DNA from: Eledone cirrhosa
Taxonomy: Eukaryota
Direction of reading: 5' to 3'
Length of the DNA: 64,000 nt
NCBI GenBank assembly: GCA_964016885.1
Contig: OZ024743.1
Span: 319,672,001 to 319,736,000 of the forward strand
Under the pieces are notes generated by a model, which saw nothing but the letters and a program-made list of their open reading frames with translations, ran no database searches and had not been told where the DNA came from. Every line of letters starts with the position of its first letter. The first letter of the stretch is position 1. Position numbers and translations under genes: made by a program. Below, piece by piece: positions 11,316-15,075 of this stretch.

Positions 11316-12616
11316 AACAATATATTTAGAAACACACAGATACATGCGGACACACACATATATACATGAATGCATCCTCACCCAACTGTGAGTTAAGGGT
11401 GCCAACTTCACCGATGTTGCTCAATGAATGACTGGGACAGACCAATCCAGTTGAACTAGACTGAACCAGTATCAGAGTTAAAAATACATTATGAAGAGAG
11501 AAGAAACATTTAGATATAATTAGTAATAAAATGTATCATACCTAAACTGCTTCTAGATTCCTCGACTACGTAGTTTCGTGGCATAAACAAAAACAATATA
11601 TCATAAAGATATAGAGTCCTTGCGAGGTCTGCCGACTTATCAAGAGGATACCTCATTTTACTAGTTTCAAGAACGCGTCTACACGACGTGAGAAAGAATC
11701 CCAAAAGGCGGAGGGGGAGATAGTCACGCGATATAACGGTCGAGAAACAGAGCTAAGCCTCTTATAACCCCGAAGAAAATACCACGGAGGCGGAGGGGGT
11801 ATTCATATCGAGGCCGTAGAAGAGGTGGTGAAGGGGGCGAGAAGTATGAGTAATGGAAGCTTTCCAGCTGTCCCCACACTTCAAAGATTGCTCGACCAGA
11901 GGGAGTTATTAACAATATATTTAGAAACACACAGACATGCGGACACACACATATATACATGAATGCATCCTCACCCAACTGTGAGTTAAGGGTGCCAACT
12001 TCACCGATGTTGCTCAATGAATGACTGGGACAGACCAATCCAGTTGAACTAGACTGAACCAGTATCAGAGTTAAAAATACATTATGAAGAGAGAAGAAAC
12101 ATTTAGATATAATTAGTAATAAAATGTATCATACCTAAACTGCTTCTAGATTCGTCGACTACGTAGTTTCGTGGCATAAACAAAAACAATATATCATAAA
12201 GATATAGAGTCCTTGCGAGGTCTGCCGACTTATCAAGAGGATACCTCATTTTACTAGTCTCAAGAACGCGTCTACACGACGTGAGAAAGAATCCCAAAAG
12301 GCGGAGGGGGAGATAGTCACGCGATATAACGGTGTTATAAGAGGCTTAGCTCTGTTTCTCGACCGTTATATCGCGTGACTATCTCCCCCTCCGCCTTTTG
12401 GGATTCTTTCTCACGTCGTGTAGACGCGTTCTTGAGACTAGTAAAATGAGGTATCCTCTTGATAAGTCGGCAGACCTCGCAAGGACTCTATATCTTTATG
12501 ATATATTGTTTTTGTTTATGCCACGAAACTACGTAGTCGAGGAATCTAGAAGCAGTTTAGGTATGATACATTTTATTACTAATTATATCTAAATGTTTCT
12601 TCTCTCTTCATAATGT
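11316..12616. mobile_element. Non-coding ~593-bp tandem unit (about 1.7 copies on -) plus inverted arm (12334-12616), with hammerheads; retrozyme-like
   Basis: Near-identical ORFs 11510..11704 and 12103..12297 are 593 bp apart, with an inverted copy at 12398..12592. HHRs at 11559-11648(-), 12152-12241(-) and 12454-12543(+). Bounded by (TA)n. Confidence 0.85.
12454..12543 (+). ncRNA. Type I hammerhead ribozyme with U3-A8 core
   Basis: tcctc TTGATAA gtcggca...tgccac GAAAC tacgta GTC gagga; predicted cleavage after 12538. Confidence 0.78.
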
Positions 12617-12780
12617 ATATATATATATATATATATATATATATATATATATATATATATATATATATATATATATATATACATATATATATATATATAT
12701 ATATATATATATATATATATATATATATATATATATATATATATATATATATATATATATATATATATATATATATATAT

Positions 12781-13013
12781 TGGTAAACGGAATAGAAAAT
12801 GCTGACAAATTGTTCACAGTTGAAAAATGGTTTAATTAGGAAAAAAGAGTATTAGTGATTGTATGGGTTAGTATTCAGTTGTGGTTTTAAGTTTTTAAGT
12901 TTTTACCGGTTGCGCATTTCTAAATGCTTTTCAAAAATAATTTTGAGATAGAGTGTCCGTGCTGTTTGCTCTGATCTGATTAGTTTTGGGAATTCTACCT
13001 GTTTTTATGTTAT
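12781..13013 (-). repeat. Single fragment of the 35161-37037 / 45702-46134 family
   Basis: tggtaaacggaatagaaaatgctgac... is nearly identical to 35163 and 45704. Confidence 0.85.
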
Positions 13014-13354
13014 TATTATATATATATATATATACACAATGATATTAAATAAATGGAAACTTTATTTATAAAACCATATTTATTTTATTATATATATTTC
13101 TATATATTCTATATATTATATATATATATTATATATATATATTATATATAATCTATATATTTATTATATATATTTTTCAATAATAAGAAATTCACAGATA
13201 CATGTGAATACATAATATACATACATATATACACATATATCTCTCACAAGTATGTGAGATTGCGTGTTGCCAACCTTAACCGTTGTTGCTCTATGATTAA
13301 GAGGGAGAAAATAATCGGAATAAATTAAATTGACTCTATATGAGAGCTATATAA

Positions 13355-13880
13355 TCTATATATATAAAACTGTGGTTGTCTGTCTGTCTATCGATTTTTG
13401 GCACACATCTCCTTTTAGAATCTCTCACGGAATTGCACCGAAATTGCTATACTTGTACATTGAGCCCTAGCGAAGACATCGGAAAAAAATATTTCAAATT
13501 GACCCACCCTATGTGACGAAATCGAATCTAATGTATCGATTTTTGAGCGTAAGTGACGAGTTATTTCCCTTTGCTCTGTTTACATTGAGCGTCTTACGTT
13601 GTTTTTCTCTGCGTTGCAGTGTTTACATTTTCGATCTTTGTTAATAAATAACCAGTGCAGTTTTTATCCCCAGCATCCTATTTTGTTATAACATTCGGGT
13701 TATCGTTATGTTTTCTTAACTTCATAAGGCATATTGTTGGTTGAGGGAATATTAATCAAAAACACCACATGCAAGTCTGCACAGTAGACACTACAGTTTT
13801 TAAGCCAAAAAAGAAACTTAACATTGTAACTTTAACACAGCTACTGAGCGACCCCGAGCAACGCCGGGCTTTACTGCTAG
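13355..13880 (+). mobile_element. Non-autonomous Helitron
   Basis: Starts TCTATATATATAAAA and ends with the hairpin cccgagcaacgccggg plus CTAG. It is inserted between A and T of an older copy of the 593-bp family, with no TSD. Confidence 0.8.
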
Positions 13881-13924
13881 TACATTATAAAGAAAGAAGA
13901 AACATTAGACATAAATAAATAAAT

Positions 13925-14085
13925 AATTGTTTCTACTTTAGGCACAAGGCCAACAATTACCCAGTGTGTGACTGGTACTTTATTTTATCCACCCCGTAAG
14001 GATGAAAGGCAAACTCAACCTCGGCGGGATTTGAACTCAGATCGTAAAGGGACGTAACTATGCTGGAAAGCATGGCGTCCGACCA
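13925..14085 (-). mobile_element. tRNA-derived SINE (family 1)
   Basis: Near-identical to 6857-7045; another partial copy lies at 14820-14940. Confidence 0.85.
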
Positions 14086-14112
14086 AATAAATAATAGCTA
14101 TTAATTCTTCAC

Positions 14113-14207
14113 ATTCTCGACTGCACAGTTTCGTGTCTACTTTGCAAAAAATCCTATATCATAGAGATGTAGTATTCTTATGAGGTTTGCCAACTTATCA
14201 AGAGAAT
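14113..14207 (-). ncRNA. Diverged hammerhead of the 593-bp family (U3-A8 core)
   Basis: attctc TTGATAA gttggca...gacac GAAAC tgtgca GTC gagaat; stem I covaries with the 12454 copy. Confidence 0.72.
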
Positions 14208-15075
14208 ACCTCATTTAAAGTTTCAAAACAGGTCTGCACCGTGCGAGAGAATCCCGGGAAGCCGGAGGAGGACCCTATCACGTGATACAGCGGTCAAGAA
14301 ACAGAGCTAAATCCCTTATAACAATGAGAAATACCACAAATGGCGGAGGGGGCATTAATACAATGCCGAGGCTACAGACGAGGTGGCAAGGGAGGCTAGA
14401 AGTGTAAATAGTATTAGCTTGACATATGTGTATATATGTATGTATATGTATGTATTCACATGTATCTGTGTATTTCTCATTATTGTCTATAACTCCCTCA
14501 CAGTAGAGTAACCACAGAAGTATAGTGACTGCTTTCATTCGGGGGTTATCATCATATATATATGTGTATATATATAAATATATATATATGTGTGTGTGTG
14601 TGTGTGTGTTTGTGTGTGTGTGTGGGGGGGGGGGGTATCTGTGTGTGTTTGTGTGTGTGTGTGTGCAAGAATGTATTCTTAAGTTAAAAACGTTGACTAA
14701 CAAGGGTTGTGTATGAAACACACCAATCAGTGAACGACAATGCATTTAAATTGAAGCACTCTACGTCATGCGTGTTGTTTCAAATATAATTTGTTAGTCT
14801 ATGACATAGTATATGTACAATAATTGTTTCTACTTTTGGCACAAGGCCAGCAAATACCCAGTGCATTACTGGTACTTTATTTTATCGACCCCGTAAGGAT
14901 GAAAGACAAAGTTAACCTCGGCGGGATTTGAACTCAGAATGGCATATGTACAATAATGATAATTGCGAAGGTCAGAGCAAATATTCATAACTCCTGTATT
15001 CTTAAGCAGTCGCGATAAATAGTACAATGGCAGTCATGGTTACATGTTGTTTCGATCATGCATCCACCAACGTGG

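Follow-up and report, generated by a model that had tools for sequence, protein, structure and literature searches.

Hammerheads occur in animal retrozymes and in Penelope-like elements (PLEs), and both kinds of element are close to the repeat analysed here, a family with a 595-bp unit and a type I hammerhead motif found in a window of 64,000 nucleotides from Eledone cirrhosa (GCA_964016885.1, contig OZ024743.1, positions 319,672,001 to 319,736,000 of the forward strand; coordinates below are those of the window). Animal retrozyme circles measure 170-400 nt (PMC7229834), and retrozymes have been described as non-autonomous PLEs of 51-972 bp, one of nine dimers being cleaved (bioRxiv 10.64898/2026.07.22.740005). 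The PLE hammerheads of S. mansoni have a U3-A8 pair in about 1,300 motifs; they are dimer-type minimal motifs of low activity, and circles have been proposed as templates (PMC4209133). Natural U3-A8 cores also occur in phage and bacterial hammerheads, and pseudoknots in about 40% of hammerheads (PMC3088659). In Poseidon elements, two start sites of the reverse transcriptase (RT) set the tail, and each of the two target strands is cut and extended; a dimer is predicted for the protein, and hammerhead cleavage is dispensable in vitro (PMC11167929). Neptune and Naiad elements show tandem and inverted structures, a 30-40-bp tail often at one end and a (TA)n bias (PMC8557442).

We consider it probable that the 595-nt family is a non-autonomous retrozyme with PLE-type ends, the RNA circle of which would be copied by a Penelope-like, probably Neptune-type, protein. 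It resembles the animal retrozymes without long terminal repeats (non-LTR) in its tandem non-coding units, each with a type I hammerhead, a GC content below 45%, strong self-pairing, thousands of copies and a dimer-type stem III (PMC7229834; bioRxiv 10.64898/2026.07.22.740005). It differs from them in the U3-A8 core, in a stem II of 59-62 nt with a predicted pseudoknot and in the PLE ends directly visible in the insertions. The first-pass annotation of this stretch had called the unit long for an animal retrozyme; at 590-597 nt it does exceed the circles of PMC7229834, but it lies inside the range of the bioRxiv report.

With the Cercyon PLE hammerheads of S. mansoni the motif shares U3-A8, a palindromic helix III, a short helix I, G10.1-C11.1 and a long helix II in which a base is bulged close to the 5' end (PMC4209133); here, however, stem II is much longer and branched, the stem III palindrome has 10 nt and no open reading frame (ORF) is attached. 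The insertions are like those of Poseidon PAc and Neptune/Naiad in their partial tandems, inverted 5'-truncated arm, AT-rich or (TA)n targets and tail at one end, set by two RT start sites (PMC11167929, PMC8557442). Unlike these PLEs the family is non-autonomous, and its tail has 168 nt, compared with the 30-40 bp described and 68 nt in a Neptune-type element of the same genome; a strict pairing of one site per arm was counted in the 595-bp family. Finally, described pseudoknotted and core-variant hammerheads include natural U3-A8 pairs and a pseudoknot of about 6 bp that aligns stems I and II (PMC3088659). In the pseudoknot predicted here, an internal stem II bulge would pair with the sequence that flanks stem I on its 5' side.

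The U3-A8 core is thus ordinary and the unit length is not novel; the value of the family is as a test system. The first-pass annotation had called the core non-canonical; a rare or novel core is not supported, given the natural cores of PMC3088659, the S. mansoni motifs of PMC4209133 and two further U3-A8 families in this genome, and the Penelope-type insertion architecture, absent from that annotation, is more informative than the core. An origin of PLE tandems and inversions from hammerhead circles used as template was proposed in PMC4209133, and PMC8557442, PMC11167929 and bioRxiv 10.64898/2026.07.22.740005 leave the template question open. In a very young family, about 1.6% from its majority and with some 7,000 motifs, counts constrain the mechanism: each arm has one start site, each insertion one template, and the cleavage junction is read through precisely. 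Such insertion statistics make the circle-template question testable. In the open-access literature, subscription papers not being covered, we found no paper on the 595-bp family or the one-site-per-arm rule, and the available part of PMC6962438 holds nothing relevant to the family.

The hammerhead and its conservation

The exact U3-A8 hammerhead pattern has 7,180 matches in the 3.0 Gb of genome searched and the reversed control pattern has none, so a chance origin of the motif is excluded. The C3-G8 version with CUGAUGA has no match genome-wide, and a pattern open at position 8, wild-type base included, has 7,191, so that 11 copies carry G8 or C8. Among 216 full hammerhead copies sampled from fetched loci, the core reads UUGAUAA in 211 (the remaining five have single changes), CGAAAC is present in 213 and UC at the cut in 212; a T at the cut site in one subfamily alignment proved to be an edge effect of the reference copy. 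U3-A8 is therefore the family consensus, in support of the first-pass annotation, and the alternative of a CUGAUGA consensus fails. It had also foreseen that searches for CUGANGA miss the family, and among the 150 of 235 Rfam matches listed none is a hammerhead at the coordinates of the young or the older window copy. Surveys built on a CUGANGA core and a short stem II overlook entire families of high copy number.

The tandem units, each carrying a type I hammerhead, are dispersed at high copy number. The annotated unit of about 593 bp is the spacing in the window, while the family unit has 595 bp, with a 591-bp subfamily. At least four subfamilies, 71-90% alike, can be told apart. The GC content of the unit is 37-42%, and coding capacity is absent, the longest stop-free stretch having 87 amino acids (aa); a short ORF over the hammerhead is absent from the older subfamilies. 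A hammerhead on the opposite strand was sought in the 595-bp unit and not found, and when relatives sharing stem I but having a short stem II were sought by pattern, only three deletion derivatives turned up. Judged from its copies, the repeat is young and non-coding, with a real hammerhead motif under selection.

The motif is assigned to type I by its conserved core, a Watson-Crick 3-8 pair and three helices with stem I open. Scored on 40 copies hand-picked for diversity, 95.8% of cells are paired, compared with 35-49% in slid controls; individual helices reach 91-98%, and two-sided changes occur in stems I, II and III. Two-sided changes affect nine pairs, compared with 4.3 in shuffled data, a difference that is weakened by the shuffles ignoring relatedness and by the changes being carried by only some four subfamily lineages. 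Pair 4 of stem I, for example, is U-A (18 copies), U-G (6) or C-G (14). Stem II, annotated earlier with a loop of about 45 nt, has instead a 6-nt bulge followed by a covarying hairpin of 13 pairs (95% of cells paired). The earlier claim of covariation thus holds for the stems; the 3-8 pair is U-A in 40/40 copies and, as it never varies, has no covariation of its own within the family. The compensatory changes in the stems are an argument that the master lineage was under selection, in line with the selection proposed at first pass. Folded by itself at minimum free energy, the hammerhead gives no significant result (z -1.76).

Stem III is a 10-nt palindrome with three common forms (ACUACGUAGU, ACUGUACAGU and ACUGCGCAGU, in 173, 23 and 9 of the 216 copies). 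The changed palindrome noted earlier in the diverged window copy, ACUGUGCAGU, does occur, but is rare (2/216). The central pair is C-G in 20 and U-A in 16 of the 40 copies, the palindrome being kept perfect. In a monomer this pair sits in the hairpin loop and it can form only between two hammerheads, so its preservation points to cleavage as a dimer, as does the palindrome as such; the computed energy is -12.4 to -16.9 kcal/mol for the duplex and +1.5 for the hairpin. In addition, the 6-nt bulge of stem II is complementary to the six bases directly 5' of stem I, from which a 6-bp pseudoknot is predicted. This complementarity is 97.9% paired with one pair alone varying (UA 31, UG 7, CG 2), and 11 of its 12 positions are invariant across subfamilies, compared with 349/597 elsewhere (p 0.03).

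A U3-A8 pair with a three-pair stem III is likely weaker than the canonical hammerhead core. This would suit a motif that has lost catalytic activity and persists as a structure serving the PLE enzyme for protein binding or packaging. Many metazoan PLE hammerheads are indeed poor cleavers in vitro (PMC4209133). However, conservation extends to every catalytic position and to the cut-site C in all four subfamilies, while 58% of columns elsewhere (349/597) are invariant, and double changes maintain the dimer palindrome, which makes a purely structural role very improbable.

Insertion anatomy and the template

Insertion architecture was mapped for 133 arms at 81 non-redundant loci. The loci were drawn from the best hits to the window unit and from hammerhead matches within the first 54 Mb of contig C1, with three chosen arrays of several units and two deletion derivatives added; the set excludes overlapping fetches, one local duplicate and the 30 loci of older subfamilies. 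Nearly all arms, 122/133, end at one of two sites: site A, 80 nt after the cut (60 arms), or site B, 168 nt beyond A (62 arms), which gives the 168-nt tail. The sequence (AT)4 follows 53/58 A ends and 51/57 B ends (104/115). Both orientations are present in 48/81 loci, and their ends pair as A/B in 41, A/A in 2 (one of them a separate old fragment), B/B in 1 and with one other end in 4. Each arm thus has a different site in 41/44 two-arm loci with both ends at A or B (p 1.6e-9).

At polymorphic sites the difference is 0.9% between opposite arms and 10.5% between loci, so the same template served both arms. Both arms are longer than one unit at many loci, for example 2,907 and 1,612 nt at L124. 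The cleavage junction is crossed 190 times by arms, only 2/133 5' ends lie within 5 nt of the cut and none of the 216 copies has a gap there; the cleaved linear monomer was therefore not the template. The 5' truncation points cluster in unit zones 93-168, 332-398 and 500-531, possibly through stalling of reverse transcription at hairpins.

Arrays of this kind could also be satellites, grown from solo PLE termini by unequal crossover, with DNA fold-backs as inverted arms and the hammerhead as a passenger. A crossover route has been discussed for retrozyme tandems (bioRxiv 10.64898/2026.07.22.740005), a few junctions are fold-back-like and gene conversion could homogenise the arms. However, neither arm contains the other in 6/43 two-arm loci, which rules out fold-back for those six, and the thousands of dispersed short arrays, the fixed A/B ends in (TA)n with random internal 5' ends and the compensatory changes across subfamilies all speak against such an origin, to which we give hardly any weight.

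Within insertions, 40 loci with at least three pieces have 94 private variants and 3 common to subsets. No variant is common to the two 3'-terminal units of a locus over 6,576 informative columns, which favours repeated reading of a single unit, on the assumption that source tandems mutated like the present copies. The comparison bears on a rival scheme in which the PLE machinery copies a linear multimer, transcribed from a genomic tandem and left uncleaved; no circle is needed, and the hammerhead would have its role in a different step, acting slowly or helped by protein. [quoted passage not shown] On the other side, about 13 variants common to the 3'-terminal units of both arms would be expected where none is seen, at an assumed rate of 0.002 and with sources diverged like today's copies, though these may be younger. 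The 5' ends are scattered, without a single start-site peak, and arrays would presumably shrink every round unless regenerated. We regard the linear multimer as possible, if somewhat doubtful, and all readings other than it and the circle template as together improbable.

The insertion pattern speaks for rolling-circle copying, primed twice, of a single RNA circle. Its support at the level of sequence consists of the core, the covarying stems, the palindrome, the (TA)n targets, the A/B ends with one arm at each site, one haplotype per insertion and precise passage of the junction. The circular monomer fold has z -6.2 for the sense and -1.9 for the antisense strand (40 shuffles).

We suggest the following cycle. 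Genomic tandem copies would be transcribed, the stem III palindrome would pair two hammerheads, and the cut after GUC would free a monomer. Stem I would then re-form and the ends be ligated into a circle, which would not reopen, a lone stem III being unstable. A PLE protein, for which a dimer is predicted elsewhere, would nick a (TA)n target on each strand and prime (i) one cDNA at site A and (ii) one at site B of the same RNA. Each RT would circle the template with strand displacement, and the two cDNA ends would be joined by microhomology into a tandem-plus-inverted insertion. That a PLE protein dimer primes both (TA)n strands in this way, at two sites 168 nt apart on one ribozyme-made circle, has in our judgement about an even chance. 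If true, PLE tails, tandems and inversions would arise in one step, and retrozyme tandems would be born multimeric and not grown by crossover.

Beside the relatedness of the covarying copies, several points weigh against the circle. In vitro, Anolis Poseidon hammerhead mutants inserted normally; the main substrate there was uncleaved RNA, and the Poseidon start sites are identical on both strands (PMC11167929). Eight of nine Xenopus retrozyme dimers showed no cleavage in vitro (bioRxiv 10.64898/2026.07.22.740005). Three loci (L119, L121 and L129) have both 5' ends at one position and are possible fold-backs. The whole-unit fold of the four-subfamily alignment has 18 two-sided changes on each strand alike, so covariation outside the hammerhead is not strand-specific. 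Furthermore, 50 examined GIY-YIG loci, a small share of 10,596 first-look candidates, include no autonomous PLE whose terminal repeats are homologous to the unit, and no PLE ORF is contiguous with the unit in 133 loci.

The window itself holds one young insertion (11316-12618), flanked by (TA)n tracts on both sides, and one older copy, see Table 1. The three young hammerheads of the first-pass annotation are present, including the one with a stem I mismatch, a private G-to-C change at 12154 in unit 2, and each part of the insertion has the core UUGAUAA, GAAAC and GUC. The annotated tandem array is real as regards the head-to-tail units on the minus strand (11316-12333), while the third part is an inverted arm; the inversion junction is a 4-nt overlap. 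The diverged copy likewise has its hammerhead, but extends over 13178-14537 and is interrupted by two later insertions. The outer end of its inverted arm (position 296) lies directly against position 294, where the direct arm has its 5' end, as in classical twin priming.

Table 1. Parts of the young insertion and of the older copy in the window (u, position in the 595-bp unit)
Feature	Position	Strand	Remarks
Full 595-bp unit	11316..11910	-	u1=11910, u595=11316; 3' end is arm-end site B, adjoining (TA)n
Stretch at 3' end of full unit	11316..11483	-	
Second unit, 5'-truncated (u171-595)	11911..12333	-	head-to-tail with the full unit 11316..11910
Inverted arm (u139-427) of young insertion	12330..12618	+	end is arm-end site A
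(TA)n target, left flank	11195..11316		
(TA)n target, right flank	12616..12780		
Type I hammerhead motif, plus copy	12447..12544	+	extended stem II, palindromic stem III
Core positions, plus copy	U3 12459, A8 12464, G12 12525, C17 12538	+	
Stem I, plus copy	12454-12458/12539-12543	+	
Predicted pseudoknot, plus copy	12447-12452 with 12474-12479	+	
Hammerhead copy, unit 1	11558..11655	-	U3 11643, C17 11564
Hammerhead copy, unit 2	12151..12248	-	U3 12236, C17 12157
Older-subfamily copy with hammerhead	14085..14422	-	U3 14201, C17 14119; ~71-75% alike to young unit
Older copy, piece with site A	13881..13934	-	cut off from hammerhead by SINE-like insertion
Older copy, tail ending at site B	13178..13348	-	cut off by inserted repeat 13349-13880
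Inverted arm, older copy	14421..14537	+	

Runs X4 and X5, which carry other organism labels, contain the unit as one self-closing contig of 620-621 nt at a depth of about 8. An RNA circle or a second species was rejected as its source, and the contig is read as low-level DNA carry-over since the other repeats of the genome are present in roughly the proportions of run X1.

Candidate mobiliser

A genome search for GIY-YIG gave 10,596 first-look candidates, of which 150 were scored and 50 loci examined. These 50 share only microsatellites with the unit, save for one nested family copy. The PLE ORFs of the window and two Neptune-type proteins were tried as partners and dropped, no ORF contiguous with the unit being found. 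A loose end in run X6, taken up as a lead to an autonomous partner, mapped to one unrelated locus (L091), and a search with the tail for such a partner returned family copies only.

One PLE family (L165, L166, L170, L173, L174 and L176, 95-98% alike) encodes an RT and GIY-YIG, with Pfam matches to RVT_1 (below the cut-off, E 2e-6) and GIY-YIG. Its linker CGRSNCGTC fits the Neptune CX2-5CxxC pattern, with a C-terminal GIY-YIG; the label Neptune-type refers to domains and linker motif. The terminal repeats contain a U3-A8 hammerhead with UUGAAAA, the flanks are (TA)n, and the copies end 82 and 150 nt after the cut (a 68-nt tail), the first site being close to the 80 nt of the 595-bp family. The family has A'/B' inverted arms, with one site per arm in L170, L174 and L176. 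Its first site has a 15-base pyrimidine-TATA match with the older subfamilies of the 595-bp repeat, not significant alone. On the basis of this hammerhead, the (TA)n flanks and the two-site ends, the mobiliser of the 595-bp family is likely a Neptune-type PLE. The young PLE at L165:2773-8401 has an open stretch of 938 aa, although in L165 the ORF is interrupted in its 5' part.

Other elements in the window

A 467-bp tandem with canonical C3-G8 hammerheads lies at 56093-59260. It forms two arms, inverted to each other and made of 2.4 and 4.3 units, which are 99.5-100% identical and end 69 nt apart in (TA)n. By its sequence, this is the two-site, two-arm pattern in a family unrelated to the 595-bp unit. 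A second U3-A8 hammerhead family, with a unit of about 320 bp, occurs in tandem and inverted at 47483-48000 and 51234-51830; it has a short stem II and a palindromic stem III and is without homology to the 595-bp unit. Another hammerhead repeat, with CUGAUGA and a UA cut site, forms inverted pairs in AT tracts (10518-10873, 45213-45632, 55498 and 59471).

A very high-copy repeat resembling short interspersed elements (SINE-like) has many copies in the window, among them 13923-14084, which splits the older copy, and 14820-14944. In run X6 the summed depth of this repeat is about 10,000 times the depth of the 595-bp unit, compared with about 35 times in X1; X6 is not recorded as RNA, and its depth was not used in the analysis. 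[quoted passage not shown]

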